Counted from the stretch's first letter, positions 29,430-45,436 are shown. The stretch is DNA of 64,000 nucleotides from an uncultured bacterium (GCA_963827865.1 CAWHCO010000001.1:111304-175303), one strand, 5' to 3'. The notes: generated by a model from the letters alone, not told the origin. Numbers and translations: made by a program.

Positions 29430-31760
29430 CTACCCGAGGTCGGAACCGATGATGTCGGGCGCTGTGTCCTCGGACGCAATGCCACCCCGCTTGCTGAACC
29501 AGATGGCGAAGGCGAGCAGCGCCAACGCCACACCGATCACCGTACCGCGAACCTCCCAGCCGTAGCCCCGGATGACGAACGGCGCGACGAGAATCGCCAC
29601 CAGGTTCATCACCTTGATGAGCGGGTTGATCCCGGGCCCGGCGGTGTCCTTCAACGGATCCCCGACCGTGTCCCCTACGATGGCAGCCTTGTGGGCGGGA
29701 CTTCCCTTGCCCCCGTACATGCCGTCTTCGATCTTCTTCTTGGCGTTGTCCCAGATGGCACCCGTGTTGGACATGAACACCGCCATCAGCTGGCCGGTGA
29801 GAATGGCGCCGACGAGGAACCCGCCCAGGGCACCTGCACCGAGCCAGAAACCGACCAGGATCGGGGTGAAGATACCGAGGATCCCCGGCCCGAGGAGTTC
29901 CTTCTGTGCGGCTGTGGTCACGATGTTGACGCAGCGGCTGTAGTCCGGCTTCTCCTTCCACTCCATGATCCCCGGCTTCTCACGGAACTGACGCCGAACC
30001 TCTTCGACCACTTCGTAGGCGCCCCGACCCACAGCCTTCAGCGAGAAGGAACTGAACAGGAACGGAACGGCTCCTCCGATGAGCAGGCCGACGAAGACCT
30101 GGTACACGTTCACCTGGATCCCCACGGCCTCGAGCTTGCTCTCGCCGATGAAGGAGCTGAACAGGGATATGGCAGCCAGCACCGCAGTGGCGATGGCGAG
30201 GCCCTTGGTCAGTGCCTTCGTGGTGTTGCCGATGGCATCAAGCCAGGCCAGGTTGCGGCCCACATCTTCGGGAGCCTCGGTCCGCGACATCTCAAAGATC
30301 CCTTGGGCGTTGTCGGTGATCGGCCCGAACGTGTCCATCGCCAGAATGAAGCCGGTGGTCGTCAGCAGCCCGAGTCCGGCCAGCGCAATGCCGTAGGCGG
30401 CAAGCGCTGCATCACCGCCGAAGAGGAGGCCCGATGCCACGATGGTGATTCCGATAGCCACGATCGCCCACACGGAGCTCTCGAGGCCGGAGCCGAGTCC
30501 GGTGAGGAGCATCGTCGCCGGTCCCGTCCTGGTGGCTGCCGCCGTCTCGCTGGCGGCTGGGTAGTCGGGATGGGTGAATCTCCTGGTGAGCCACAGGTTG
30601 ACCAACGCGAGGCCGATGCCCACGGTGCATGCCGCGGCATACCGGTAGTCGGGACGCCCCATCGTCGGGTCGACGAGATAGAAGTGGGCGATCGCGAAGA
30701 ACCCCACCACCGATGAGAGGGCTGCCACCATGAATCCGGTGCTGATCGGTCGCATCGGATCGCGCAGCGGCTTGTCGCCCACCCGGACGCTGTTGATGCC
30801 CAGGATCGAAGTGAACACTCCGAGGGCACGCACCATCAGTGTGAAGAGCACGAGTTTCAGTGCGAAGCCGGCCGCGTCGGCACCGAAGTGGCTGAGGAAT
30901 TCTGGATCGAGGAGCGCGGCGGCAGCAAGGATGATGGCCGCCACCAGCGTCACCTCGTAGCTCTCAAAGACGTCGGCGGTCATCCCGGCACAGTCCCCGA
31001 CGTTGTCGCCCACATTGTCCGCGATGACCGCCGGGTTGCGAGCGTCGTCCTCGGGAATCCCGGCCTCGACCTTCCCAACCAGATCGGCGCCGACGTCTGC
31101 CGCTTTCGTGTAGATACCCCCACCGATTCGCATGAAAAGGGCGGCCAAGGAGCCCCCAAAACCGAATCCGACGAGCACCTTCATGGCATTGTCGCTGAAC
31201 AACAGGAAGATGACGGTGGCACCAAGCAGGCCGAAGCCGACCGTGAACATCCCGGATACTGCGCCGGCGCGAAAGCCCAGTTCCAGTGAGCTTCCGTAGC
31301 TGGTGAGCGCGGCGTTCGCAGTACGCACGTTGGCCTTCACCGCGAGCCACATCCCGACGTAGCCGGCCCCATAGGATGCCAGCACACCCATGATGAACCC
31401 GAGGGCGATCCCGACGGGGAGTGGAAGCTTGGAGCCCGCCGGAGTCACCGGATAGACGCTGCGGTACGCGAGCCACAGCACCACCGTGACCGCGATCACG
31501 AACCAGATCATCGTGCGGAACTGACGTCGCAAATACGTCATCGCACCATCTTCGATGTCTGCGGCAATCTCGCGCATCTTCTCGGAGCCCGCCGGCTGAC
31601 GCAGTACCTTTCGCACGAGGTAGTAGCCGTAGGCGAGAGCGATCAACGAAGACACGAGCACGCCCACCAGCACCAGCCAGTCGTCCCTGCCAAACGCGGG
31701 GAGCGTGACGTCACCCTCCCCAACGGCGAACGACCTCATCGCGGTCAGGACGCCCACCAC
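29430..31760 (-). CDS. hppA: Membrane-bound H+-translocating pyrophosphatase, K+-independent type
   Basis: DVGADLVGKVE, DNVGDNVGD, GDTVGDPLKD; GNTTKA has Lys at the K+-dependence position. Confidence 0.93.
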   Translation of the reverse strand: MVGVLTAMRSFAVGEGDVTLPAFGRDDWLVLVGVLVSSLIALAYGYYLVRKVLRQPAGSEKMREIAADIEDGAMTYLRRQFRTMIWFVIAVTVVLWLAYRSVYPVTPAGSKLPLPVGIALGFIMGVLASYGAGYVGMWLAVKANVRTANAALTSYGSSLELGFRAGAVSGMFTVGFGLLGATVIFLLFSDNAMKVLVGFGFGGSLAALFMRIGGGIYTKAADVGADLVGKVEAGIPEDDARNPAVIADNVGDNVGDCAGMTADVFESYEVTLVAAIILAAAALLDPEFLSHFGADAAGFALKLVLFTLMVRALGVFTSILGINSVRVGDKPLRDPMRPISTGFMVAALSSVVGFFAIAHFYLVDPTMGRPDYRYAAACTVGIGLALVNLWLTRRFTHPDYPAASETAAATRTGPATMLLTGLGSGLESSVWAIVAIGITIVASGLLFGGDAALAAYGIALAGLGLLTTTGFILAMDTFGPITDNAQGIFEMSRTEAPEDVGRNLAWLDAIGNTTKALTKGLAIATAVLAAISLFSSFIGESKLEAVGIQVNVYQVFVGLLIGGAVPFLFSSFSLKAVGRGAYEVVEEVRRQFREKPGIMEWKEKPDYSRCVNIVTTAAQKELLGPGILGIFTPILVGFWLGAGALGGFLVGAILTGQLMAVFMSNTGAIWDNAKKKIEDGMYGGKGSPAHKAAIVGDTVGDPLKDTAGPGINPLIKVMNLVAILVAPFVIRGYGWEVRGTVIGVALALLAFAIWFSKRGGIASEDTAPDIIGSDLG

Positions 31761-31997: not shown

Positions 31998-32279
31998 CTA
32001 GAGTTCGGTCAGCAGCTGGAGGAAGTCGTCCCGATCCACGGCGGGCATCGTGTGAGACTTCGCCCCGATCAAGTTGCCGATCTTCGCAGCGACCTTCATC
32101 GCCGCACGATTGTCCGGGCACTCGACGATCGACATGATGTCGTGGTGACCGAGAAGGCCGTAGACCGCAAGGATCTCACAGCCCTCGGCTGCGGCGATCT
32201 GTTGGACCTTGGCGAACCGCTGCGGGCCGCCACCCTCGATCGCTCCCGTGTAGTTGAACAGACTCACGTACTTGGACAC
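31998..32279 (-). CDS. GYD domain protein
   Basis: YVSLFNYT, YGLLGHHDIMSIVECPD. Confidence 0.8.
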   Translation of the reverse strand: MSKYVSLFNYTGAIEGGGPQRFAKVQQIAAAEGCEILAVYGLLGHHDIMSIVECPDNRAAMKVAAKIGNLIGAKSHTMPAVDRDDFLQLLTEL

Positions 32280-32404: not shown

Positions 32405-32423
32405 GGTGTCGGAGGCGGGACTT
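32405..32423 (-). repeat. tRNA-Leu 3'-end copy (outermost att scar)
   Basis: GGTGTCGGAGGCGGGACTT matches 39918-39936 at 18/19 positions, same orientation. Confidence 0.75.
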
Positions 32424-32712
32424 CGTGTGACAGCAATGACCCCGGATAGCGACTCCGCGACTGGGTTGCAGGCTGATCGACGGGTAATATCTGTAGAGGC
32501 GCGCCGCGGCGAGTAGGCCTGAGTGCGCTGGTTTCCCATGGACCAGCCAGCATTTCTCGCCGCCCAGGGGGCGGGGCTCCCGCGGTGCTCGGGAGGCTGG
32601 TGGGCCAGTAGGTGGTCACCGGGATAGCCGGTACTCGATTCCGGCGGCGGGAGCGAGAGAGCTACGACTGAATGTGACATCATGGGCCGATGCCGGACCA
32701 CTGCCGCCTATC

Positions 32713-33897
32713 GTGACCGAGCCCACTCCCGCCCTAGCCGTCGACCATTCCCTCGACACTGAGGGCCAAACCGGGCGTCTGGCCACTCTCGCTGGCGGGC
32801 ACGCAGTTCACGACACATTCACCGCATTCCTCCCCCCACTCCTGCCCCGGTTCGTCGAGAAGTTTCGCTGTCAAATACCGCTGCCGGTATCTTGTCCACG
32901 TTTCTTCAGATCCCCGGACTTCTCCAACCGGTGATCGGCCATCTCGCTGACCGCACAACCCTGCGATGGATCGTGGTTCTTGGCCCCGGGGTCACGGCGA
33001 CTGCAATGAGCCTGCTCGGGTGGGCTCCCAACTATGCCGTTCTGGCGCTGTTCCTGCTGATAGCGGGGCTGAGCCACGCCGCTTTCCACGCGACTGCTCC
33101 TGTTGCCGTCGGATATCTCTCAGGTCGGCAACTCGGTCGCGGCATGGGATTCTGGATGGTAGGTGGCGAACTGGGCCGCACCCTCGGCCCTCTCATCGTC
33201 GTCAGTGCCCTTGCGCTGATGTCGATGCGATCAATGGCGGTTCTGGCCATAGCCGGAATAGCGACATCGGCCGTGCTGCACCTCCGCCTGAAAGATGTCT
33301 CCTCTGCGGAGCAGGGGCGATGGGGAGCGGATTCACTGGCGGGCCGCCGTCAAGGCAATGCGCGGGATGATGCTGATCCTGGCCGGGCTCATCGTGGTGC
33401 GGAGCATGATGATGATGGCCGTCACCATCTTCCTCCCGATCTTCCTCACCAATGAGGGCACCAGCATCTGGCTGGCTGGAGCGGCGCTCTCAATAGTCGA
33501 GGCGGCCGGGATCGCCGGAGCCTTCGCCGGCGGATGGGTCAGCGACCACATCGGCAGAAGGGCTGTGCTCGTGTTTGGCCATATCGCTGCACCGACCGCG
33601 CTGCTGCTCTTCCTTGCCGCTGATGGCTGGGCACGGATCGCAATGCTTCCCGTCATCGGATTCACTCTGCTGGCGGTCCCACCAGTCTTGATGGCATTGG
33701 TCCAGGAACGATTCCCCGAAACCAGGGCACTCGCCAACGGAGTGTACCTATCGCTCAACTTCGCCATCCGCTCGCTGGCCGCCATCAGTTTTGGTGCGGT
33801 TGGCGATGCATTCGGTCTGTCGACGGCAATGCTGGTGGCTGCCTTCGCGACCTTCGGTGGGCTGCCGCTGATATGGCTGTTGTTCCAGCGTTCGTAG
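32713..33897 (+). CDS. MFS transporter (Fsr-like), frameshifts near 32868 and 33300
   Basis: GHAVHDTFTAFLPPLLP, LQPVIGHLADR, GGELGRTLGP, GWVSDHIGRR spread over three frames. Confidence 0.8.
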
Positions 33898-34041
33898 AAC
33901 CTTCGATTGGTCACGGTGGATGAAGAGTGGCCTCGAATTCTCTTCCGTTTGAGAAGGCTGCAGGTATCAGCGCCACCCGATCGGCCGGGCGGTGCATCCA
34001 GTTCAGCAAGGCAACTCTTCTCCCTACGGTCTTCAGGTCGT

Positions 34042-34761
34042 CTACTTCTCCATGCTCGGTTTCCACACCTTCCACACATTCCCGACGAGATCGGGTCCGG
34101 GTTTCAGAGTGAGATCGCCGGGCATCCAGCCGGCCGGTGTTGCCTCGCTGCCCTCGGACTCCCGCACCAGCTGGTAGGCGTTGATCTGGCGGATCGTCTC
34201 ATCGATGCGCCGCCCGACGGGTGGTGTGAGCACCTCCATCGCCTGGATGACACCGTCGGGATCAATGATGAACCGGCCGCGCATCTCGATGCCCTGGGTT
34301 TCGTCCCATACGCCGTATGCCCGTCCGATGTTGCCGGCCTGATCCGATGCCATGGCGAAGGCTATTCCGCCATCGACCATCTTCGTCAGCTCATGGTCGT
34401 TCCACATCTTGTGGACGAAATGGCTGTCGACACTGACCGAGATGACCTCGACGCCGAGTTCCTGTAGGTCTGCATACCTGTCGGCGACCGCCGACACTTC
34501 GGTTGCTCAAACGAAGGTGAAATCGCCTGGGTAGAAGCACAACAACAGCCATTTCCCGGCATAGTCCGCCAGTTTGACCTGCGTGAAGCCACCCTTGTGA
34601 TAGGCGGGGGCTGTGAAGTCAGGGGCCCGCTGCCCCACGGTTGCGCTCACATCAACCTCCTGTACTGCGTCGTCGGATCGACTCGGCTCAGAGACGTGCG
34701 AGGGCGTTTCGACCCCAACGGTTCCAGTGACCCGGCCACATCCGACTGCCTCATCGACCAT
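34042..34761 (-). CDS. prxU: Selenocysteine-containing peroxiredoxin (AhpC/PrxU type), in-frame TGA at 34509-34507
   Basis: FYPGDFTFV-TGA-ATE places TGA exactly at the peroxidatic Cys of FYPxDFTFVCPTE; frame continues into SVDSHFVH, RGRFIIDPDG; SD before ATG 34761. Confidence 0.92.
34479..34496 (-). promoter_or_regulatory. Bacterial SECIS element
   Basis: 10 nt after the UGA: stem UGUCGGC/GCCGACA with GGUC apical loop, the same loop and similar spacing as E. coli fdhF SECIS. Confidence 0.85.
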
Positions 34762-35154
34762 CGTTATCCTTCTCGGCAGTTGGTCCAAGGATAGCCAATC
34801 ACGGCGAGGCCCCAATTGTGATCTCGATGCACATCCGAGGCGGTGAGTCCCTTGTTGTTGGGAGCGCCCCGGCCGGGATTCCAGGTTCGTTGAGAGATGT
34901 AACTCGCGCACGTGTCGTCACAGTGAAGACGTACCCTTCGCGCGGCAAGTAGCCAGGCGGGAGGTGCGAGCGCTCCGGGCCAGAAGCCGCCCCGCCTTCG
35001 CGTGCCTCAAGGTCTGCGCCCAGGCCGCCGATACATTGGATACGTACAAAAGATACGCTCATGAGAGCGAACGCCTGGTTTTGGCACGGACCCCCCCGGG
35101 AAGTCCGGCCACCGAGGCTTGACGCGACCTCTCCCGAAGACGAAGAGGTCCATC

Positions 35155-35694
35155 ATGCGTAAACCCCGAATCATCTCGCCGGGCCGTGTAGTCGCTGCCT
35201 CGGTTGCTTGCCTCCTTGCCCTCAGCATCGCCGCGCCGGCGTCCGCACAGACGCCAGTGACGCTCACCATCACCGGTGGTGCGCTGCAGATCACCGTCCC
35301 CGTCGCCCCCGTCGTCCTTGGCACCATCGTCAACACGGTGGATGGTGGGACGGTCAGCGGGCAGCTGGGTGTGGTGCAGGTGAGCGACGCCCGCAGCGCA
35401 GCAGCCGGCTCCGGCTGGGTCGCCAGCGCTATCTCCTCCGCCTTCACACCGCCGGCTGGCCCGGCGATCGCTGCCAGTGCCGTCGGCTACGCCGCCGGTA
35501 CCATCACCAAGGTTGGCACGGCCACCTACACCGCGAACGATCCAGGCGACCTCACCGGCGTCAGCCCGGTCGTGACGGCAACGGGAATCACCGGCGACAA
35601 CTCGGCCAGCTGGAACCCGACAATCACCGTCACCGTACCCGGAGGCATGGCAGCCGGTGTGTACTCCGCGACAATCACCCACTCGGTGTCGTAG
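35155..35694 (+). CDS. Secreted WxL-like cell-surface protein
   Basis: Signal peptide (APASA), VSDARSAAAGSGWVAS resembles the WxL-domain VxDxR...GW motif, C-terminal YSATITHS. Confidence 0.6.
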   Translation: MRKPRIISPGRVVAASVACLLALSIAAPASAQTPVTLTITGGALQITVPVAPVVLGTIVNTVDGGTVSGQLGVVQVSDARSAAAGSGWVASAISSAFTPPAGPAIAASAVGYAAGTITKVGTATYTANDPGDLTGVSPVVTATGITGDNSASWNPTITVTVPGGMAAGVYSATITHSVS

Positions 35695-35701
35695 CGCACT
35701 C

Positions 35702-36718
35702 ATGGGCGCATCGCTGCTGTTCGGTCGATGCGGTCGGCAGATCCTCGCCGCGCTCATCCTGATCGTCTTGGTGCACGCTCCGGCACACGCATCGGCCGCG
35801 TCGAACTCCCCGACCGATGATCTCGGCGGTATCGGTGTCCGGCTTCTCGACAAACCTGCTGATGCGGGCGAGGACCCCAGAGCACTGTTGTACATCGTGG
35901 ATCACCTCGCGCCAGGATCGCTGATCAGTCGAAGGATCGAGGTCACCAACACCACCTCTGAATCTGCGGCCGTATCGATGTATGCCGCCGCCGCCGGGAT
36001 CGAAGGTGGCCATTTCGTGGTCGCGGACGGACACACACCGAACGACCTGTCGACCTGGTGCACGGTGCTTCCGGCCATGAAAGATGTACCGGCCGGCGGC
36101 GCTGCCACAGTCACCGTGACGATCAACGTGCCAGCAGATGCCGCCGCGGGGGAACGCTACGGGGTGGTGTGGGCAGAGGTCCGATCTGGCGCCGCGTCGG
36201 GGATCGTTCAAGTCAACCGCGTGGGCATTCGCCTCTACGTTTCGGTGGGAACAGGCGCGCCTCCGGCCGCGAATTTCACGATCGATTCCCTGACGGCCCA
36301 ACGATCGCCTGACGGCTTGCCCACGGTGCTCGCCACTGTGCACAACACCGGCGGACGGGCGCTCGACCTGGCCGGCTCACTCGAGATGCTGAACGGTCCC
36401 GGAGGGCTCTCCGCAGGCCCGTTTCCGGTCACCCCCGGCTTCACCCTCGCCATCGGTTCCAGCGGGCAAGTTACGATCGCGCTCGATGAGCGCGTGCCCG
36501 ACGGCCCGTGGGACGCGACATTGACACTGCACAGTGGACTCCTCGAACGAAGCGCCACGGCGTCCATCATCTTTCCCGAATCCGGCTCGGCGCTACCGGT
36601 TCCTACGACTGCCGTCGAAGAAGCATTCCCGTTCGCCGCCATCGGTCTCGCCGTCGCCCTTGTACTGTGCGGCCTCGTCCTGCTCTTCATGCTCTCGCAA
36701 CGCAGGCGCCACGCCTAG
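35702..36718 (+). CDS. DUF916-like (WxL-interacting) protein with C-terminal TM anchor
   Basis: Signal peptide, YIVDHLAPG...RRIEVTN, VNRVGIRLY, VHNTGGR, TM helix followed by RRRH. Confidence 0.6.
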   Translation: MGASLLFGRCGRQILAALILIVLVHAPAHASAASNSPTDDLGGIGVRLLDKPADAGEDPRALLYIVDHLAPGSLISRRIEVTNTTSESAAVSMYAAAAGIEGGHFVVADGHTPNDLSTWCTVLPAMKDVPAGGAATVTVTINVPADAAAGERYGVVWAEVRSGAASGIVQVNRVGIRLYVSVGTGAPPAANFTIDSLTAQRSPDGLPTVLATVHNTGGRALDLAGSLEMLNGPGGLSAGPFPVTPGFTLAIGSSGQVTIALDERVPDGPWDATLTLHSGLLERSATASIIFPESGSALPVPTTAVEEAFPFAAIGLAVALVLCGLVLLFMLSQRRRHA

Positions 36719-36808
36719 ACGATCTCCATTCATGCCGGATTCGACAGGAGCCGCCAGGTTTCCTGCATCTTCAGTGCGGTATTCGTCGTGAAATGCCAAC
36801 CGCAGGCC

Positions 36809-36833
36809 TGTGACCTGGGGTTGGTGTCGGAGG
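36809..36833 (-). repeat. tRNA-Leu 3'-end copy (att scar) with arm-like motif
   Basis: GGTGTCGGAGG (36823-36833) identical to 39918-39928; preceded on + strand by TGTGACCTGGGGTT. Confidence 0.65.
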
Positions 36834-36867
36834 AGCTCCACTTTGTCCACATCGAGAGATCGGTTCC

Positions 36868-37104
36868 CTATGCCTTGGGGAGCCCCAACCGCGCCGCCCT
36901 TGTCCGCTCCGCTGCCTCACGTTCGTGCCGTGATGGCTGGAGCGCGCTCTCGTCTTCCAGCCGCTCGCGTTGCATCACGTCGTCGTGATCGAGGCGTTCC
37001 TTCGACACCCGTCTGTACATGAGCACCGACGCCGCGGTCACCGCCACGGCTGTCAAAGCGATAATCTCCACGGCGTTCAAACGCTTCTTCTCCTCTGCCC
37101 CCAT
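36868..37104 (-). CDS. Hypothetical single-TM protein
   Basis: 78 aa with hydrophobic stretch IIALTAVAVTAASVLMY and charged tail; no motif recognised. Confidence 0.45.
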   Translation of the reverse strand: MGAEEKKRLNAVEIIALTAVAVTAASVLMYRRVSKERLDHDDVMQRERLEDESALQPSRHEREAAERTRAARLGLPKA

Positions 37105-37300
37105 CGTAGACAACACGTTCGCTCGTGGCCTATGCATCAACGCTGCTGCGTTCGAGTCGTTCGTAGTCGGAGTGTCCGCCAGCCGCTCGATCACCTACGA
37201 CGCTAACGGTCGCACCGGTTGGTTCGTGTTGTCACCGATCAGTCCCGGCTGTCTTGCGACCCAAACCAGTGGAGGCTTGCCGTGCCAGGGACGAGTACGG

Positions 37301-37615
37301 TCAATCCAGCACGACGCCGGTGCCATACGCGAGGATCTCCGACGCGTTCTGCATCACCATCGATGTCGCGAAGCGCATTCCGATGATGGCATTGGCCCCT
37401 TGGCCCTCCGCATCTTCGACCATCCGGGCGAGGGCCTGTTCGCGAGACTCGCCCATCATCTTGGTGTACTCGACGATCTCGCCACCGACCATGTTCCGGA
37501 ACGCCGCCATGATGTCTTTCCCGACGTGTCGCGCACGGATGGTGTTGCCCTTGACGAGGCCGATCGTTCTTGTCACCGTGCGTCCCTCGATCGAATCCGC
37601 TGTTGTGATGATCAT
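37301..37615 (-). CDS. YbjQ/UPF0145 family protein
   Basis: GLVKGNTIRARHVGKDIMA...GANAIIGMRF...AYGTGV. Confidence 0.92.
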   Translation of the reverse strand: MIITTADSIEGRTVTRTIGLVKGNTIRARHVGKDIMAAFRNMVGGEIVEYTKMMGESREQALARMVEDAEGQGANAIIGMRFATSMVMQNASEILAYGTGVVLD

Positions 37616-37827
37616 CGTTGCACCTCCTTGAAGTCGTCATCTCGTGACTCGGATAGCCGATCCTTGACCACCAAGCCGACAAGGATGAGCGCCCCAATGG
37701 CGACCGCGCCCACTGCAACCCTGACCAGGATGGGGATTTGGTCAGAGAGGAAGAAGCCTTTGACGGACCAACCGATGAGAACGAGCGCCCCCGCTCCGAT
37801 CAGGAGATACGCGGCTCTCTGCATCAT
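37612..37827 (-). CDS. Small two-TM membrane protein
   Basis: Two hydrophobic helices; stop overlaps the YbjQ-family start (ATGA). Confidence 0.7.
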   Translation of the reverse strand: MMQRAAYLLIGAGALVLIGWSVKGFFLSDQIPILVRVAVGAVAIGALILVGLVVKDRLSESRDDDFKEVQR

Positions 37828-38107
37828 TGCACCTCACGATCAGTCGGAATCCAAGATCGCCACCCCAACGATACTCGCCCACCCGACGCGTGGGCCGCTG
37901 TCGGCCAACGCTTGCTCGCCACGCTCCTCCATGGAAGCGAGAGCCCGAGTCGCCACCCACATCGTCGTCATGTACGGCCCTGACGACCTTCCCAAACGAA
38001 CGACGCCCACATCCGCCGGCAACACGGTCGGGCCATCTGCAAAGAACTCGGCGTCAAACTCCCCACTACCCCGACGGACGAGTACGCGTAGCCGCGGGCG
38101 CACGTCA

Positions 38108-38145
38108 TGTACCTGAGGTTCGTGTCGGAGGGACGACTTCAACCC
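38108..38145 (-). repeat. tRNA-Leu 3'-end copy (att scar) with arm-like motif
   Basis: GTGTCGGAGGGACGACTTCAACCC (38122-38145) matches 39919-39942 at 21/24; preceded by TGTACCTGAGGTT. Confidence 0.8.
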
Positions 38146-38292
38146 TAAGTACACGCGAACCGTGGGAGGCATGGCTGCTCGCCGCGTGAGGTGATCGTTG
38201 AGGCGCTTCTGGTAATGCCCGGAATGTGTAGAGACTCAACAACAGCCTGCTCAGAGTGCTCTCTCGGCCGTGCAAACCGAACGAACTGCGGT

Positions 38293-38631
38293 TCAGAGTT
38301 CGAGTAGAAAACGAAGGACCCGGCTGATCTCGAAGATCACATGAGGACCGACCTGACCGAGACGGGTGATCAGCCGCTGCTCGGAAACCGACTTGAGGTC
38401 CTCGCATTTCGCATAGCTCACCACGTCAAGACCCGAATCACCGGAATCGATCTCAATGTGGGACGGAAGGCCTCGACGGGTGGTCGTGCAGGGGACGACC
38501 ATGATCACACCGGCTGGACCCTCATTGAGCGCATCTGCCGAAATCACCACGGCCGGGCGACGGCCGGATTGTTCCCGTCCGATCGGCTCCCCGAAGTCAA
38601 CCAGCCAGATCTCACCTCTCCGCGGTGTCAT
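38293..38631 (-). CDS. mazF: PemK/MazF family endoribonuclease toxin
   Basis: RRGEIWLVDF, REQSGRRPAVVIS, VVPCTT, CEDLKSVS. Confidence 0.92.
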   Translation of the reverse strand: MTPRRGEIWLVDFGEPIGREQSGRRPAVVISADALNEGPAGVIMVVPCTTTRRGLPSHIEIDSGDSGLDVVSYAKCEDLKSVSEQRLITRLGQVGPHVIFEISRVLRFLLEL

Positions 38632-38867
38632 CAGGACTGGTCACCGACAGTGCCGTATTCCAGAGCACGCTCAGCTTCTATCTCAGCCCACGCCGACCGA
38701 TCATCGCGGAGTTCCTCGAACCGCTTGCTCATCTCGTCGAAGAAGAGGCGTCGTTCGAGCGCATCGGCTGCCTCGTCTAGCAGTTGGGTCATCGGACGTC
38801 CGGTGGTATCTGCAAGCCTTGCGAACCGATCGCGGGTGCTCTCACTCACTCTGATCGTGGTACTCAT
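38631..38867 (-). CDS. Ribbon-helix-helix antitoxin
   Basis: MSTTIRVSESTRDRF RHH N-terminus, acidic C-terminus, TGATG coupling to the toxin. Confidence 0.82.
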   Translation of the reverse strand: MSTTIRVSESTRDRFARLADTTGRPMTQLLDEAADALERRLFFDEMSKRFEELRDDRSAWAEIEAERALEYGTVGDQS

Positions 38868-38873
38868 AGACTG

Positions 38874-38904
38874 AGCATACTAGATAGTAGACCAATTCGT
38901 CTAC
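38874..38904 (-). promoter_or_regulatory. Leaderless TA promoter with palindromic operator
   Basis: TAGACG-N18-TATGCT, 6 nt before ATG 38867; perfect inverted repeat GTAGAC-N6-GTCTAC (38887-38904) over the -35. Confidence 0.7.
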
Positions 38905-39012
38905 ATCTCCCCCGCCGGATATCTTAGAAGCAGGATGCGACCTCCGCGCAACCCGCCGACTCGACCGGTCTCTACCACCAGTCAAAGGATCACGTGGCGG
39001 CACGAGCACCCA

Positions 39013-39053
39013 TGTGCCTGGGGTTTCTTCGTGTCGGAGGAGCGATCCGAACC
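39013..39053 (-). repeat. tRNA-Leu 3'-end copy (att scar) with arm-like motif
   Basis: GTGTCGGAGGAGCGATCCGAACC (39031-39053) matches 39919-39941 at 18/23; preceded by TGTGCCTGGGGTT. Confidence 0.72.
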
Positions 39054-39133
39054 ATTTCCCCACGGGGCGGGCCTACGGACGAGTTCCTGGTAGCTGCGTG
39101 ATCGTTGACTTGAGCATGCTTGGCCCGACAGGA

Positions 39134-39162
39134 TTGATGCGACACGACGGTGTGTGTATACT
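39134..39162 (+). promoter_or_regulatory. Leaderless sigma-A promoter with operator for vapBC
   Basis: TTGATG-N17-TATACT, 6 nt before ATG 39169; palindrome ACAC-GACG-GTGT (39142-39153) in the spacer. Confidence 0.72.
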
Positions 39163-39168
39163 ATGCGC

Positions 39169-39399
39169 ATGGCGAGAGTCAACGTGTACCTACCCGACGA
39201 GTTGGCCGAGAAAGCAAAGGTGGCCGGGCTGAACGTGTCGAGCCTCACCCAGGAGGCCCTTCGCAGTGCCCTCTCCGCCGGTCGCACCGACGACTGGCTC
39301 GACGACATCTCCCGACTTCGAGCCACCGGCGTTACCCACGACGACGTGATCGAAGTCGTCAACGACGCGAGGGACGAGTTTGACAGCGACCATGCCTGA
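39169..39399 (+). CDS. vapB: CcdA-like RHH antitoxin (VapB)
   Basis: MARVNVYLPDEL...GLNVSSLTQEAL; overlaps PIN toxin. Confidence 0.8.
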   Translation: MARVNVYLPDELAEKAKVAGLNVSSLTQEALRSALSAGRTDDWLDDISRLRATGVTHDDVIEVVNDARDEFDSDHA

Positions 39400-39787
39400 A
39401 CGGGCGATCGTCGACGCCTCAGCGATGGTCGATCTGCTCGTCGGATCACCGCTGGCGAACGAGGTCGCCGATCGTCTTCGAGCGAACGAACTCCACGCCC
39501 CCGCCCACTTCGACGCAGAGGTACTCTCAGCGCTCGGTCGGCTGCATCGGGCCGGCCAACTCACCGCCCGGCAGACTGAAGCGAGGGTCGAACGCCTCGC
39601 CACCTCCCCCATAGAGCGGCACGCCCTTTCGACTCTTCTGGCCGGCGCGTGGAAACGCAGACACAACCTGCGACTCGTCGACGCACTCTACGTCGAGCTG
39701 GCCGCCCAACTCGACATGCTCATCGTCACAACTGACAGCGGAATGGCGGCCGCCACCACAGCAGCCGAGCTGCTCACACGTCCCTAG
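39392..39787 (+). CDS. vapC: PIN-domain toxin (VapC)
   Basis: IVDAS, EVLSAL, LVDALYVELA, TTD acidic PIN residues. Confidence 0.92.
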   Translation: MPERAIVDASAMVDLLVGSPLANEVADRLRANELHAPAHFDAEVLSALGRLHRAGQLTARQTEARVERLATSPIERHALSTLLAGAWKRRHNLRLVDALYVELAAQLDMLIVTTDSGMAAATTAAELLTRP

Positions 39788-39919
39788 AGCTCGCAGCGAA
39801 AGGCCCCTCCACACACTGACCCGACACATGCTGCGGCCATCGAGACAGAAAGGGAATCGAGATCGGTTCTCGCTCGACGGACGAGTCCTCTCCTGCGCTC
39901 AGCTCGTGCAGTCTCGCGG

Positions 39920-40004
39920 TGTCGGAGGGGGGACTTGAACCCCCACGTCCTATTCGGGCACTAGGCCCTCAACCTAGCGCGTCTGCCTATTCCGCCACTC
40001 CGAC
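39920..40004 (-). tRNA. tRNA-Leu: tRNA-Leu, anticodon GAG (CCA not encoded)
   Basis: Acceptor stem GTCGGAG/CTCCGAC, D arm GGCGGAATAGGCAGAC, anticodon arm CTAGG-TTGAGGG-CCTAG, long variable arm, GGTTCAAGTCC T arm. Confidence 0.97.
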
Positions 40005-40029
40005 GTGGGTGGGTGAGTATACCGTCCGG

Positions 40030-40272
40030 CTACCCACCGAAGATGATCGTCAACGCGACGGTCGTCACGGTGAAGATGATGCCGGAAGCCACGGTCATAC
40101 GGTCGAGGTTGCGTTCCACGATCGTCGATCCCGACATCGCCGACGGTCCCATTCCCCCACCGAACATGTCCGACAAACCGCCGCCTCGCCCGGCGTGCAG
40201 CAGGATGAAGACCACGAGCGCGAGCGACACGATCACGTGGATAACGACGATGATGACTGTCAGGACGTGCAT
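40030..40272 (-). CDS. secG: Preprotein translocase subunit SecG
   Basis: ILLHAGRGGGLSDMFGGG...ERNLDRMT; conserved position just upstream of tRNA-Leu. Confidence 0.93.
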   Translation of the reverse strand: MHVLTVIIVVIHVIVSLALVVFILLHAGRGGGLSDMFGGGMGPSAMSGSTIVERNLDRMTVASGIIFTVTTVALTIIFGG

Positions 40273-40422
40273 TGATTCTCCAGATCGGGCGGTAGGATCA
40301 CGCCGCGGCACCCAAGTATGCCGGGATTCCCGCTCCTAGGTCAAGTTCTTGACGGGAGAAAGGTGATGCCTGAACCCGGACAGCCGGAGTGTTCGCCTTC
40401 GGTTTGACGCCGATTCGTCCGT

Positions 40423-41355
40423 CTATCGATTCCCGTCGGCTTCTGGATCGGCAAACGATTCGGGCAGCACCTCCTCTGCCCGCGCTTCCCACACTTCGAG
40501 GGCTTGGGCATCCCATCCGAGGTACGCCACCTGCAGCCTGTACGCCATGTAGAAAGCAGTCACTGCGCTAGCAACTAGGCGTCGGACATAGTCAGCGTTG
40601 ACACCGAGACCCCTGCCTGCGCCATCCTCGCTCGGGACAAAGCGCCTCTCCAGCTCCACTGCGTTCGGGTGTACGTACGCGCTCAGGAATGCGTACATGC
40701 CAGCAGCCATGTCCTCATGCATATCTGAGCGGTTCGCGATGAGGACTGCCGTTTCTTCGGGAGAGAGATACGGCTCCTTCGCGAGAGTCCACTCGCCGGA
40801 CTTCACGTCGTGGGCGAGGGAGATCTCACTGGGCGCGAAGAGGTCGGGAATGTCCTTTCTCAGGATGGTCCGCTTGGCATTCCCAATCTGCCTGCCAACG
40901 TCAGGCGCAAGTGGACTGTAGGCAGACAGGACTTCCCGAAGGCTGTGATAGGTGTCCAGGTAAACACGAGCGATTCGAGCCTTGGGACTGATTCGATTGT
41001 CCAGGATCCACGCCACTCTCATGGCCGTTTCGATAGCGGCTCGAACCACGACCTCACCGGACAAAAAGAAGCCTCCGGCCTCGAACATGAGCCCAAGATT
41101 CCGAAGGTGTTGGCAGACAGCTTCGAGGTAGAGGCCGCACGTCTCGGCTGTGTGTCTGAATGGCTTCTCCCCCCACGGCCCGGCAGGCCCCACGATTCCT
41201 GCAGCGATCTCGGATTGGCATCGAGAACCTGCCTCGCCCGTCCAGGCGACGTCGGGAGTGCTTGTGTGGCAATGGTGTGTTTTGCGAGTGTCAATGAGGA
41301 ACTTGGGTAAGGCTCCTAGCTGTTCCCGGAGTTCGTCCGCCGTAAGCAATATCAA
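40423..41355 (-). CDS. Hypothetical all-helical protein (DUF5677-like)
   Basis: RAAIETAMRVAW and YAFLSAYVHPN patterns; TTG start with SD GGAGGA. Confidence 0.5.
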   Translation of the reverse strand: MILLTADELREQLGALPKFLIDTRKTHHCHTSTPDVAWTGEAGSRCQSEIAAGIVGPAGPWGEKPFRHTAETCGLYLEAVCQHLRNLGLMFEAGGFFLSGEVVVRAAIETAMRVAWILDNRISPKARIARVYLDTYHSLREVLSAYSPLAPDVGRQIGNAKRTILRKDIPDLFAPSEISLAHDVKSGEWTLAKEPYLSPEETAVLIANRSDMHEDMAAGMYAFLSAYVHPNAVELERRFVPSEDGAGRGLGVNADYVRRLVASAVTAFYMAYRLQVAYLGWDAQALEVWEARAEEVLPESFADPEADGNR

Positions 41356-41406
41356 TCCTCCCGACGTCTATGACGTTGAGCCCCCGTGTGCTGAGTGCTT
41401 CCGACC

Positions 41407-42030
41407 CTAAGATCCGACACCCTCTGTGACGACCACGCCGTATCGGGTTGAGTCCAGTTCCTCTTCTACTAGCCGTCTCGTCTTGGCACGCCAGTGAGAT
41501 GATGATGGGTCTGTTCCGGCGGCTTTGGCTTCGCGGTGTCGGCGGTAGGTGTCGAAGTAGTCGCGGTATGACTTGACGGCGAGTTCTGTGTCTGTGTGTT
41601 GTTCGGGGTTGCGGGTTCGGACGCGGTAGGCGGTGGTGTCGGGTTGGTGTCGATTGAACCACCACGGCTGACTCATGGCGACTGTCGGGTTGGGTTCGTA
41701 GGGGGCGACGAGGCTGCGGGGGCTTCCGAGGCCGATCTCGCTTGCGGTGGGGTGGGCGATGGTGAGGAACCCGAAGGGCCGCACCTGCTGGGGGTAGGAC
41801 TTGTTCCGGTTGTAGGCGTCGAAGCTGGCGAGTTCGTGAAAGCTACCGATGGTGAGTTGTCCGATTGCGGGCTGGTCGAACCATTCGGGTTCGGGATGGT
41901 CGAGGCCGAGTTCGACGTGGAGGAGGTGTCCCACAACTGGTCGATCCAGTTTCGTCCGTTGTGTTTGCCGGTTGGGCGTAGGAGGTGGCCGAGGCCGTGT
42001 TCGGACCGAGGGTGCAGGCGATCCGGTTTC
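41407..42030 (-). pseudogene. Fragment of a divergent family-B DNA polymerase-like gene of mobile origin
   Basis: SEHGLGHLLRP...NWIDQLW-[frameshift ~41935]-ELGLDHPEPEWFDQPAIGQLTI...YNRNKSYPQQVRPFGF...VKSYRDYFDTYRRHREAK; family assignment from recall, unverified. Confidence 0.45.
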
Positions 42031-42206
42031 GATCTCTGTCAGGACCTGTGTGCTGTTGGGCTGTGGGGGCCGAAACGGGGCTATGGCTTGACTCGCAGAC
42101 TTCCGTCCAGTGCTCCACGCCGACGAGTGGAGCGGTCCAAATGGAGTTGCTTCGTGTGGGCGGATTGTCTTTGGTCGACTGGGTATTGTGCCGATGACAT
42201 TGGGTG

Positions 42207-44337
42207 ATGGATCAGATCTCCCAACACCATCGGCGACCCCCGTCGAGTGCGGTCAAGGACATAGTCCTGTACCTGGTCTTCGTGGTGGGCGGGGCGTGGT
42301 TGTCTGTTCGTTTTGACCTGTTTGAGGGGTTCACTCATTGGAGTCTTGACCGCGCAACACATGTGCTGGCGATCATCCCAATGTTCATGGTGGCGGGTCT
42401 GGCGGTGTTTGGGTGGCGGCGATGGCGTGAGTCTGTCCGGGAGATCGCCCGCCACGTAGCGACCCTGGAAGAGCTTCGGGTGAGCAACAGCAGAGTTCAG
42501 GCGTTGCAGGCAGCGTCACCGGATCTGATGTTCCGACTAGACCGGGATGGCACCTTCCTCGCCGTCAAAGAATCTGCGGCCCTGCCGATGCCGACCGAGA
42601 CAATTGTCGGAAAGAACCTAGACGAGGTGCTACCACCCGACGTTGCCGAGAAGACGTCGGATGCCGTGAGACAGATCCACGCCGGTAGCAGCAAGGTGAT
42701 ATTCAGCTATGAGTTCCCGGGTCGGGATGGTCCCGAGTCTTGGGAGGCCCGTTGCATCCCGGTGGCCGGCTCCGAAGACGTGCTCGTCATCGCCCACGAT
42801 GTCACCGACTCCAAGACTCAGACGGAAGCCCTGCGGGACCTGCAGGAACGGTTCCGCGCCGCCTTCGAGGATGCTTCGATCGGCATGGCTCTGACATCGG
42901 AAGAGGGCCGGTTCATGTTGACGAACCGGGCGTTGTGCGAGATGTTGGGCTACTCCAAAGAGGAGCTGGCCAGCATGAACTTTGCGGATGTCACGCACCC
43001 TGACGACCGAACCGACAGCGAGGCGAAGAGGCAAGAACTCGCCGTCGGAATGGACCCAACGGTGCATTGGGAGAAGCGATATCTCCACGCCGACGGCCAT
43101 ACCGTGTGGGTCCAGATAAATGTCGCGCCGGTACGAGACTCGGAAGGGAAAATCAGCTATCACCTGTCTCAGGTACAGGACATCACGGATCGTCGGGAAG
43201 CTCAGGCGTCGTTGGCGGCAAGCGAGCAGAGATGGAAGCTGACCTTCGAGGCGGCCCCCACCGGAGTGGGTCTAGTCAATGTCGAGAGATGGCCGGTTCC
43301 TCACGGCCAACCAGGCTGGTTGTGACATGTTGGGGTACAGCGAACAAGAACTGTTGACTATGACTCTAAGGGACCTGACCTTTCCCGATGATCGAGAAGC
43401 GAGCATCGCCCGACTCCGGCAGGTGATCACCGGCGAGATCCCGTCTTCTCACGCCAAGTTGCGCATCCTTCGCAAGGACGGCTCAATAGGGGACGCGCTG
43501 GTGTCCGCCGCTCTGCTGGGACGTCCAGAAGACCGCGCCCTCAACCTGGTCGTCCACTTCGTCGACATCACCGATCAAGTAGCAGCGGAGCAGCGTCTCG
43601 CCGACCTGCTCGCCACCAAAGACGAACTGATCGCCTCGGTCTCCCATGAACTGCGTACCCCTCTTACCGCTGTCGTCGGCTACGCCCAACTACTCAACGA
43701 CGAAGTGTCGGGTCTCTCGCCGGCCGAACGAAGAGAGATGACTGCACTCATCGTCAGCCAAGCGATGGACCTCACCAACATCATCGAAGACCTCCTGGTG
43801 GGAGCCAGAGCCGACGCCGGCACCCTCACCATCGCCCAGGTGCCAGTCGACATCCGCGCCCAAACCGCCCAGGTGCTCGAAACCCTCCACACGGCCGCTC
43901 GGATCAGACTTGCCGGCCCATCGGCACAAGCACTCGCAGATCCGGCCAGAGTCCGCCAGATCATTCGCAACCTCATCACGAATGCACTCCGCTACGGAGG
44001 AGACCTCATCCAGGCCAGCGTGGAAGACACGGCATCGTCGGTTCGGCTCATCGTGTCCGACAACGGCCCGGGCATCCCTCTAGAAGAACAGGACCTCATC
44101 TTCGAGCCATACCACCGCGCCCACAACAGCAAGGGACTCACCGCCTCGGTCGGACTCGGCCTCACCGTATCCCGTAAACTCGCCAAACTCATGGACGGCG
44201 ACCTCACCTACCGGAACGAGAACGGACAAAGCATCTTTCAACTTGACCTACCTAAAGCCGGCCCACAAGCAAGTCTGACCGACCTGTCCCTCTCTCACCA
44301 TCCCGAACTCAATCCCCCCGTGCTCCTCCACACCTAG
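42207..44337 (+). CDS. Membrane sensor histidine kinase with three PAS domains, frameshift near 43288
   Basis: Two TMs, 3 PAS/PAC, VSHELRTPL, NLITNALRY, DNGPG, GLGL across ORFs 42204..43325 and 43279..44337. Confidence 0.85.
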
Positions 44338-44565
44338 CCGAAACCGTACAGAATCCGAACCTTCCAGACGCGACCGCCGGCCGGGCCCGTAGCGCGGTCA
44401 GAACGTCACGGTCTCCCAACCCTCGACTCGCCACCCACGGTGATCATCACGCGCCGGCGTTCCTCCGACACCGACAGAACACCCATCTGAAGCTCTGACC
44501 ATTCGGCGCGAGAGATGTCAGCGAGTTCGCGATGCGTGGAGCCGGCGCCGTCGAAGGCAATCGGG

Positions 44566-44795
44566 GGGCGCTGGGCGCCCGCCCAGCCCGCCCGGCCGGC
44601 GAGGTAGGCGTCTCGCCGAGGGGAACGAACCCCCGGGGTGTGGCTAGGTTTCGGCCAGGCCGTGCCCTCCCCCACCCAGCCCGTCGAGTTCTCGACCCCG
44701 CTCGGAGCAGAGCGGCGGCAGTGACCAGTACCCCAACACCCAGCAGGGTGAGCCCGGCATGCGACAGCCGGGAAAGGTTCGTAGGGCCAACCAGT
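44566..44795. other. Hairpin-dense non-coding segment (candidate structured RNA or IS end)
   Basis: Seven consecutive stems in ~210 nt, e.g. GGCGAG/CTCGCC, GTCGA-GTTC-TCGAC, CCGCTC/GAGCGG, CCCGGC/GCCGGG. Confidence 0.45.
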
Positions 44796-44801
44796 CGGTG
44801 C

Positions 44802-45260
44802 CTATGCCTCCAGGATCTCCTTCAACTTCTCCAAGTCGGAGGCAGCCTGACGTCGCAAGGTTCGTTTCATGAAGAGCATCAGAACCCTCATCAGAAGACT
44901 CGGCTTCACACGCGTATCGATCGTCACACGGTTGCCGGCACCCTCGGCGTCGATGCCATACGATCCATGGCTACCCCTGAACCTGCCGCCGGTGACGTCT
45001 CAACCCATGATGCGCTGCTCATTCCACTCCGATACCGTCCATGGCCAGTCCCCCACGCCCTGCACCAGGTGCAAGCCGGTCGATCCCACACCGTACGGCG
45101 GATCTGAGATCCAGCGCGCACTGGTTACACCGGTGCGCCAACGTGTGTCGTTGGAGACGTCATATAGGAACGTCCAGACATCTTCAGGAGGCCGCGCGAT
45201 CGCTATCGAACTCTGAAAGCTGTTCCATGCCTCGCCGCTCGTCACTTCATCTCCTTCCAT
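44802..45260 (-). pseudogene. SRPBCC/START-fold protein interrupted by in-frame TGA (45002-45000)
   Basis: IAIARPPEDVWTFLYD...RIMG*DVTGG...DLEKLKEILEA; TGA at a position where Trp is plausible. Confidence 0.75.
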
Positions 45261-45436
45261 GAGCACGCTTCATGTCTCGGAGGCAATGACCCTTGGCGAG
45301 TGCATCGCATGAAAGTCGGATGCCATCCCCTGGACGACCCATAGGCCACGGCTCACCAGGCCGACCGGACCATACCAGCGGCACTGCGGTGGCCCAGCTT
45401 TGTGCACAATTCGCAGGAACGGTTTGAATCCTGAGG

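Follow-up and report, generated by a model that had tools for sequence, protein, structure and literature searches.

Stacked small elements at the 3' end of a tRNA-Leu(GAG) gene: a probable accretion array of a large serine recombinase family

In this work, we ask how four copies of the 3' end of a single tRNA gene came to lie one after the other, in the same orientation, beside that gene, and which enzyme placed them there. The copies are found in a stretch of 64,000 nucleotides from an uncultured bacterium (GCA_963827865.1 CAWHCO010000001.1:111304-175303, hereafter the window), taken from a 79%-complete metagenome-assembled genome (MAG). Together with the copy contained in the tRNA-Leu(GAG) gene they span 7.5 kb and delimit four modules, numbered from the tRNA outwards. 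A preliminary description of the locus had explained it by repeated integration of tyrosine-integrase elements at the tRNA, resulting in an integron-like cassette array. That description is partly supported by the present analysis: the process was right, the enzyme class wrong and the integron analogy loose. The locus is probably an accretion array, in which small integrative elements were inserted successively at the 3' end of tRNA-Leu(GAG) by a family of large serine recombinases (LSRs).

The array and its core sequence

The last 11 nt of tRNA-Leu(GAG), at 39918-39928, read GGTGTCGGAGG on the plus strand and form the block of identity common to all scars, here called the core. On the plus strand, the 10-mer GTGTCGGAGG (the acceptor 3' strand in reverse complement) is found at 32406, 36824, 38122, 39031 and, within the tRNA, at 39919; one unrelated match is found on the minus strand at 44462. 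For this 10-mer 0.48 occurrences are expected per 64 kb, and none of 100 shuffled sequences reached six. The features that carry the argument are the following (ORF, open reading frame).

39918-40004, minus strand: tRNA-Leu(GAG), the target gene (ARAGORN; Rfam tRNA, 52.7 bits; core search).
39874-39917, plus strand: tRNA-proximal end of module 1, with the arm ...CAGCTCGTGCAGTCTCGC, 'type B' (sequence comparison).
39030-39101, plus strand: scar 1, core and 'T2' tail; the LSR frame reads RVGGAIRTISPRGGPTDEFLVAA, then a TGA stop.
38973-39029, plus strand: right end of module 2, where an LSR gene survives as a decayed 3' end (...GCACCCATGTGCCTGGGGTTTCTT), holding the arm motif; weak tblastn match to LSR residues 540-561 (E 0.61).
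38121-38189, plus strand: scar 2, core and 'T1' tail, reading RVGGTTSTLSTREPWEAWLLAA, then a TGA stop, within the ORF 37827-38189.
38029-38120, plus strand: right end of module 3, an LSR C-terminus kept in frame as a relic (HYPDGRVRVAAGARHVPEV into RVGG), including TGTACCTGAGGTT (BLASTP, tblastn, phmmer).
36809-36833, plus strand: scar 3, arm TGTGACCTGGGGTT and core, no tail on the right (sequence; comparison with contig L152).
32405-32449, plus strand: scar 4, the outermost, core and decayed 'T4' tail (GVGGGTSCDSNDPG, then TAG, a premature stop); no element arm on the left.

Recounting from the sequence returned the identities originally given for the four tRNA 3'-end copies (18/23, 21/24, 11/11 and 18/19), and the module sizes of 864, 885, 1288 and 4399 bp are as reported. 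The flanking motifs are likewise in place: TGTGCCTGGGGTT at 39009-39021, 9 nt from the copy at 39031-39053, TGTACCTGAGGTT at 38108-38120, one base ahead of its copy, and TGTGACCTGGGGTT at 36809-36822, abutting its copy, while the outermost copy lacks an arm motif. Duplication starting from the T-loop, as first proposed, does not hold, the duplicated part of the tRNA being its last 11 nt only; the further tRNA-like letters at the scars belong to LSR-tail coding sequence and half-site.

These sites are restricted to the tRNA-Leu locus. A site profile built from 171 unique sites and searched by nhmmer matched the 1.96-Mb assembly only in the window, at 36796-39944, and at 10.6-19.6 kb of contig C2 (21 kb), which is the same locus of a related strain binned into the MAG; the profile revealed no further degenerate scars inside module 4. 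The pattern CCTG[AG]GGTT is present 26 times in the genome, and is core-adjacent only in six copies of the two arrays. Since it adjoins the core nowhere else, and the site profile is confined to the two arrays, the motif is not a genome-wide repeat unrelated to the tRNA.

The large serine recombinase gene and its attachment site

Across genomes, the right flank of each core belongs to one of a few conserved types of about 66 nt (T1, T2, T3 and T4), and the left flank to one of a few arm types. Clustering of the ORFs around T1 sites brought out a protein of 563 residues with the motif RVSTEDQ. Its representative P0002, from the related genome G016, contains the Pfam domains Resolvase (PF00239), Recombinase (PF07508) and Zn_ribbon_recom (PF13408), a combination that identifies it as an LSR, and its homologues begin with MRFAFYGRVSTEDQQ, the region of the serine motif. 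The family is large, with 4742 database proteins at E <= 1e-20; a sequence search of the PDB gave no match at E <= 0.001.

The LSR ORF of G016 ends ...GAPHVLGVRVGGGT, 17 nt inside the tRNA: its nucleotides GCACCCCATGTACTTGGGGTT-CGTGTCGGAGG-GGGGACTTGA pass through the core into the tRNA, the T-loop of which provides the TGA stop. In relatives the ORF reads ...HVLGV-RVGG across the 11-bp core, so that the arm motif (TGTGCCTGGGGTT and its variants) consists of the codons H-V-L/P-G-V immediately before the core. LSR genes or fragments were found in 10 of the genomes of a 20-genome family and, by coordinates, at least 13 of 16 end on the tRNA or on the core of a scar; an LSR lies at the core end likewise at the loci L068, L076, L090, L103, L110 and L144.

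Coding continues beyond the core. In the LSR frame, T1 reads xVGGA(T/S)LTQSTRAPWSxELVAA followed by a stop, and 87 of 112 unique sites share the codon at which the ORF ends. By codon position, the mean entropy amounts to 0.69 (first), 0.77 (second) and 1.25 (third), and the Trp is invariant; T2 and T4 tails also read as coding in the LSR frame. The conserved segment of about 66 nt therefore encodes an alternative 22-residue tail of the LSR. Most of 43 database LSRs inspected end ...VGGGT, at about 549 aa, and several feature longer tails, such as ...EFLLAA and ...AYSVTV. Because the arm motif is made of LSR codons and the tail is coding as well, the LSR gene contains the attachment (att) site, and each scar restores the 3' end of such a gene from the last LSR codons of one element, the core and the tail of the next. 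The element origin claimed at the outset for the flanking motif is thus supported, and given an identity.

Relics of this gene can be recognized in the window. The ORF 37827-38189 reads HYPDGRVRVAAGARHVPEVRVGGTT; its segment 38064-38138 is identical at 19 of 25 positions to the last 25 residues of P0002 (BLASTP, E 1e-8), and the relic is also found by tblastn (E 5e-7) and phmmer (6.6e-6). The earlier statement that no module contains an integrase is consequently true of complete genes, but 38029-38138 does encode the last ~37 residues of a serine integrase. The arm at 38973-39029 resembles at the nucleotide level the LSR end GCACCCCATGTACTTGGGGTT of locus L008, in G016, although the relic is short and its frame broken; it is identical on C2 and on the contigs L150, L151 and L152. 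On C2, the scar at 1710 keeps a relic of about 100 residues (E 1e-22). As to the tails, that of scar 1 resembles the tail of the database LSR P0112 (...RVGGGTRPITPRAADLGEFLLAA), and the decayed one of scar 4 is homologous to the intact 22-residue T4 tails heading other modules on L150 and L152. On L152, module 3 continues leftwards without a scar at the position matching 36824, from which it follows that the junction at 36824 is a secondary site, and probably a dead one.

What is left of the LSR amounts to ~37 residues in module 3 and to the last few codons in modules 2 and 4, the right end of module 1 being unassigned. Three of the four right ends (36809-36822, 38029-38120 and 38973-39029) thus hold LSR-like relics, from 5 to ~37 residues long (up to ~100 on C2), and for this reason the modules look like decayed autonomous elements and not like units born as cassettes. 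They are LSR-deleted derivatives of such elements, the body of the recombinase having been lost from all four.

Autonomous elements go down to 3.8 kb in size; the one in G016 comprises a tail, genes for a secreted protein and for a SEC-C protein, a 64-aa ORF and the LSR gene. When its ends are joined, the sequence reads ATGTACTTGGGGTT-CGTGTCGGAGGACCGACTTC-AACCCCAAGTACAC, with inverted-repeat arms matching at 13 of 14 positions around a 20-nt centre that has the terminal GG of the core at its midpoint; such an arrangement would be consistent with an LSR attP, a quasi-palindrome of about 50 bp around a non-palindromic central dinucleotide. Judging by the symmetry of TGTACTTGGGGTT...AACCCCAAGTACA, this GG may be the crossover dinucleotide. 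A strict pairing of left and right arm types as inverted repeats within each module was also considered and fails, since modules combine 1/A, 1/B, 2/B and 3/A. The conserved ORF of ~64 aa overlaps the start of the LSR gene (L148, 5807-6001; L149, 1455-1649; L008, 17097-17294) and, like the divergently encoded protein with a SEC-C motif, recurs with intact LSRs; it is a candidate recombination directionality factor.

Other readings of the conserved flanks were tried and set aside. Several arms form hairpins followed by a T run, as terminators do, yet a terminator scan of 36700-40100 flagged none at the scars; the LSR-coding reading explains the arms better, though the two are not exclusive. The possibility that T1 is a pseudo-tRNA or some other structured RNA was considered too. 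Rfam reports nothing in the window beyond tRNA-Leu(GAG) itself, and a hairpin spotted by eye (CACGCG...CGCGTG) was dropped after the codon-position signal emerged.

The following sequence of events would account for these data. In the intact elements of relatives, the LSR gene points at the tRNA, with the att site within its last codons and the ORF running through the 11-bp block. In the circle, or at an internal position of the array, the ORF would continue into a 22-codon tail (T1-T4) contributed by the other element end; next to the tRNA it ends ...GGGT at the TGA stop of the T-loop. The enzyme would act between the site at the 3' end of its own gene and the 11 bp at the end of the tRNA, so that integration would replace the last ~10 nt of the tRNA by the identical copy of the element, and the displaced 11-mer with its tail would be pushed outward, each new arrival repeating the process. 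LSR genes would subsequently decay from the 5' side, leaving cargo such as toxin-antitoxin pairs in place.

Strain variants, relatives and competing explanations

Comparison with other strains shows that modules come and go at the core. C2 carries seven scars and the tRNA; compared with the window, identity is 92.7% in the tRNA-secG segment and 88% over 6.9 kb of downstream genes. It shares with the window the VapBC module (98.0%), the MazEF module (97.8%) and the YbjQ cargo (97.5%), has three extra modules between MazEF and VapBC and a 0.7-kb module with a HIT protein between VapBC and the tRNA, and wherever sequence common to both gives way to sequence of only one, the change falls at the 11-nt core. 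Three further contigs from one metagenome scan, L150, L151 and L152, extend the picture. L150 matches window 35071-39041 at 99.6%, has two different modules after the MazEF core and is only 89.5% identical in the tRNA-secG flank; on L152, modules 3 and 2 (98.8%) stand among other neighbours; L151 is arranged as C2. Depending on the contig, one of three different modules comes after the right end of MazEF, and the switch falls exactly at the core. Overall, shared modules are 97-99.6% identical, against 88-92% for the tRNA-secG and downstream flanks.

In the 20-genome family, core-plus-arm matches were found in 16 genomes, a match to the tRNA query in 19 and a full-length tRNA-Leu(GAG) in 12. 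The contigs of at least 10 relatives end 0-3.6 kb from tRNA-Leu, several of them exactly at the tRNA, and two more within 15 kb, as one would expect of a locus that is rich in repeats and varies between strains. The T1 pattern gave at least 117 matches in species-representative genomes; the carriers are nearly all Acidimicrobiia, Acidimicrobiales or unclassified Actinomycetota MAGs, including Microthrix and Ilumatobacter bins, and one is a bin labelled Verrucomicrobiales. A phage origin was considered and rejected, T1 and T2 patterns having no match in IMG/VR viral contigs. The commonest ORF cluster near T1 sites, at 16 of 117 loci (L030-L146), is of 350-365 aa and, by its look, presumably encodes an IS3/IS481-type transposase; insertion sequences seem to collect in these arrays. 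Taken together, relatives and co-occurring strains differ by the presence or absence of whole modules with breakpoints exactly at the core, and the initial interpretation of the copies as scars of repeated site-specific insertion at one tRNA is borne out.

Several points nevertheless weigh against accretion by an LSR. No LSR of any family was found in this genome or in four congeners, so that nothing in the assembly could move the modules now; the absence from the genus is weak evidence, because assemblies break at this locus. The LSR gene of G016 (L008 17251-17300, G016:C2) is frameshifted at its extreme N-terminus, where RVSTEDQQ is preceded by MRFAFYG in a different frame; in close homologues, P0003 among them, the gene is intact. 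For the type B arm, which forms the tRNA-proximal right end of module 1, no link to an LSR gene could be established; on C2 this arm also closes the VapBC module, and there a different module follows it instead of the tRNA. Canonical LSRs recombine attP with attB only. For stacking, an attL-like site has to serve as the target; Ccr-type enzymes are documented to insert at such a site, this LSR family is not. Finally, homologous recombination or gene conversion also reshuffles the array and could explain some of the mosaicism. Two T1 tails of C2 (C2rc 2687-2755 and 3596-3664, L001), 0.9 kb apart, are identical over 66 nt, while the T1 tail of the window MazEF module differs from this pair at 12 of 66 positions; the identity of the pair indicates that conversion or homologous recombination between scars is at work. 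LSR-less modules may still be moved by an LSR supplied in trans, as would fit their near-identity in diverged backgrounds and the exact breakpoints at the core, or may be fixed fossils reshuffled by homologous recombination, to which the conversion between tails points; the odds are about even.

Among the alternatives, the one that fares best, although we consider it unlikely, is that the LSR-less mini-modules are not debris, and form a dedicated system of cassettes mobilised in trans, a serine counterpart of integron cassettes with both half-sites under selection. Modules as small as 0.7-0.9 kb do retain both half-sites, and one LSR-less module occurs in at least three contexts at 97-99.6% identity while its flanks differ by ~10%. 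An in-frame LSR ORF or relic is detectable upstream of only 10 of 185 cores, and the tails beside LSR-less modules still look coding. However, at least three of four right ends look like LSR truncations of varying length, as would result from random deletion, the tail side of the junction at 36824 is lost, the outermost tail has a premature stop and the genus offers no LSR; survivorship bias and tail conversion can, moreover, mimic conservation.

A more elaborate version of the same idea appears equally doubtful. The att site would be placed within the last codons of the LSR deliberately, so that two isoforms are made, one with RVGG and 22 further residues from the circle or an internal site and one ending in GGGT beside the tRNA; the exchange of tails would set the direction or the level of recombination, and LSR-less mini-modules, with both half-sites and a coding tail, would be moved in trans, as a serine-recombinase counterpart of the integron across Acidimicrobiales.

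Far less probable is the model of the preliminary description, in which tyrosine integrases built the array, and the array works as an integron-like cassette platform; we regard it as largely refuted already. tRNA 3' ends are the classic targets of tyrosine integrases, and two relatives do have one at this place: G008 (L027, C26 7876-9159) encodes a complete tyrosine integrase of 427 aa 0.7 kb from a copy of tRNA-Leu, and G012 (L014, C59 4542-5138) a C-terminal tyrosine-integrase fragment beside the tRNA. The G008 enzyme, however, has no homologue in the other 19 genomes of the family. A PF00589 scan of the genome and the family gave, apart from these two one-off cases, only Xer-like genes located far away. 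The PF00589 matches of the genome itself are one Xer-like gene and weak partial matches on C3 and C4, none of them near the array. No tyrosine-recombinase remnant was detected in the window or C2 arrays by tblastn or phmmer, and only three tyrosine-integrase fragments were found across 117 T1 loci. In contrast, LSR coding sequence can be read in three of the four module right ends and in every tail, 36824 having none. Two recombinase classes are thus seen to use the tRNA-Leu end within the family. The integron analogy can be kept only loosely: there is no IntI-type gene or other resident integrase beside the site, no attC-type site, and the cassettes lie in both orientations.

Least credible of all is that the repeats arose without site-specific recombination, by local duplication, as a tRNA-derived repeat akin to miniature inverted-repeat transposable elements or repetitive extragenic palindromes, or as an artefact of assembly or binning, as might be suspected from an incomplete MAG into which the locus of a second strain was binned: the modules between the repeats are unrelated to one another, the sites are found nowhere else in the genome, an independent metagenome contig reproduces window 35071-39041, and the same layout is seen again in five genera and in at least 117 stretches from other genomes.

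Cargo, related systems and implications

The remaining features of the array and its flanks are listed below.

40033-40311, minus strand: secG, chromosomal flank on the 5' side of the tRNA (Pfam SecG, 1.7e-17).
39154-39787, plus strand: cargo of module 1, a VapBC-type toxin-antitoxin pair; antitoxin like CcdA and ribbon-helix-helix proteins at 39154-39399 (Pfam CcdA, 1.6e-6) and PIN toxin at 39380-39787 (PIN, 1.4e-12).
38293-38867, minus strand: cargo of module 2, a MazEF-type pair; PemK/MazF toxin at 38293-38631 (Pfam PemK_toxin, 5.7e-25) and, as upstream partner, a putative antitoxin of 78 aa at 38631-38867.
36834-37827, minus strand: cargo of module 3; 108-aa ORF at 36868-37194, YbjQ-family protein at 37301-37615 (Pfam YbjQ_1, 1.4e-36) and 71-aa membrane protein at 37612-37827.
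32450-36808, both strands: module 4, a 4.4-kb composite with a major facilitator superfamily (MFS) transporter, a 1-Cys peroxiredoxin and two secreted or surface proteins (Pfam).
35119-35694 and 35657-36718, plus strand: the secreted or surface proteins of module 4 (Pfam scan).
32001-32279, minus strand: GYD-domain gene, chromosomal flank beyond the array (Pfam).

The pairs of modules 1 and 2 consist of adjacent small genes with a PIN or a PemK/MazF domain, as is characteristic of type II toxin-antitoxin systems. The VapBC pair is preceded by a promoter-like site at 39134-39162, according to a promoter scan. The MazEF cargo recurs at 78-82% identity in the loci L007, L024, L025, L040, L080, L089 and L134 of relatives, and adjoins a T1 site in G018 and G014. 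Segment 37282-37932 of module 3 is shared with C2 at 97.5%, while 34572-34832 of module 4 is 92% identical to C2, a divergence similar to that of the flanks. Beyond the GYD-domain gene, a H+-pyrophosphatase gene is found at 29433-31760 (Pfam).

The MFS transporter of module 4 (32892-33897, plus strand) is read as two overlapping ORFs, 32892-33455 and 33295-33897, and is probably frameshifted. The 1-Cys peroxiredoxin (34042-34911, minus strand) has an in-frame TGA exactly at the expected peroxidatic Cys (FTFV-TGA-ATE), so that the gene may encode a selenoprotein or else be a pseudogene. Beyond secG, as seen from the tRNA, window 40370-45400 is strain-variable too: it encodes a DUF5677 protein and a PAS-domain protein here, its counterpart on C2 is a different 2-kb segment with a 525-aa ORF, by eye similar to isopropylmalate/citramalate synthases, and L150 has no match to it either.

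The nearest described system is that of the ssrA islands of Dehalococcoides, in which DsiB, a CcrB-like serine recombinase of ~540 residues, is encoded at the target-proximal edge (McMurdie et al. 2011, PMC3146451). These islands too are inserted at the 3' end of a single-copy RNA gene and form tandems with short direct repeats, 20 bp long and derived from the 3' end of the transfer-messenger RNA (tmRNA), against 11 bp in our arrays; in both cases extra conserved sequence is found beside the repeat. The paper places the crossover, by inference, in the T-loop of the tmRNA, whereas here it would fall at the T-stem/acceptor junction of tRNA-Leu(GAG), and reports an integration module of six genes, including a second, small serine recombinase, where our elements have only the LSR, the 64-aa ORF and the SEC-C protein. 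As far as consulted, it contains no description of an integrase ORF running through the att site. Some of the islands lack the integration module and were proposed to be cis-mobilisable or accreted (PMC3146451); the four modules of the window match this type of element, as they have att-site flanks, no recombinase and, at three of the four right ends, LSR relics left by deletion. The elements described here are far smaller (0.7-4 kb) than the Dehalococcoides islands.

The staphylococcal cassette chromosome (SCC, SCCmec) offers a second parallel. CcrAB enzymes, of the LSR family, insert it at the 3' end of a conserved gene, which stays functional, and SCC composites are tandem stacks with short repeats, in which pseudo-SCC members without ccr persist. 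Unlike our elements, SCC is found in Staphylococci, targets a protein gene (rlmH/orfX), uses two recombinase subunits and has its recombinase genes inside the element and not across att. The SCC parallel has also been drawn for the Dehalococcoides islands (PMC3146451).

Other systems are more distant. Of 937 Prochlorococcus tycheposons, 910 use tyrosine recombinases (Hackl et al., bioRxiv 10.1101/2020.12.28.424599). Like our arrays, they are tRNA-adjacent islands where successive insertions push older elements outward, leaving partial tRNAs and degraded integrases, but they are larger, often carry replication genes and have longer partial-tRNA repeats. As for islands of the Islander type, made by tyrosine integrases, a displaced tRNA fragment is present in the window, but it is only 11 nt long and no tyrosine integrase is associated with it. 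Chromosomal integrons and clusters of attC sites lacking integron-integrases (CALINs) are arrays of mostly one- or two-gene units, rich in toxin-antitoxin systems, and orphan arrays exist. Integrons depend on an IntI tyrosine recombinase next to attI, on attC sites that fold as single strands, and on cassettes all oriented alike behind a shared promoter. All of these are absent here: secG and the tRNA flank the site, the module boundaries are LSR coding, genes are carried on both strands, and VapBC is preceded by a promoter-like site of its own. In archaeal integrases of the SSV1 type, attP lies inside the integrase gene and integration alters the product; those enzymes are, however, tyrosine recombinases, whose gene is split and inactivated, while in our case only the last ~22 codons are exchanged and the body of the enzyme remains intact. 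By the domain set of the relatives' enzymes, and by the position of their genes at the element end by the att site, the elements belong with LSR elements.

Full-text literature searches returned no description of such islands in Acidimicrobiia. What sets them apart, as judged from sequence, is the target at the acceptor end of tRNA-Leu, the very small size of the elements and an LSR ORF predicted to run across its own att site and to give two C-terminal isoforms.

Accretion by LSR elements replaces the puzzle of an integrase-less, integron-like array with a concrete, testable system: a very abundant, uncharacterised LSR family whose target is a defined stretch of 11 bp where tRNA-Leu(GAG) ends. 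Serine integrases are in demand for genome engineering, and this would be an unusual one, with a conserved tRNA-end target, tolerance of stacking and an att site within its own ORF. The arrays also provide a natural decay series, from the 3.8-kb autonomous element down to toxin-antitoxin remnants of 0.7 kb, in a locus that breaks metagenome assemblies, the contigs of most relatives ending at this tRNA. To our knowledge, few mobile elements have been described in Acidimicrobiales, where the tRNA-Leu locus appears to be a main hotspot of strain-level variation in gene content.

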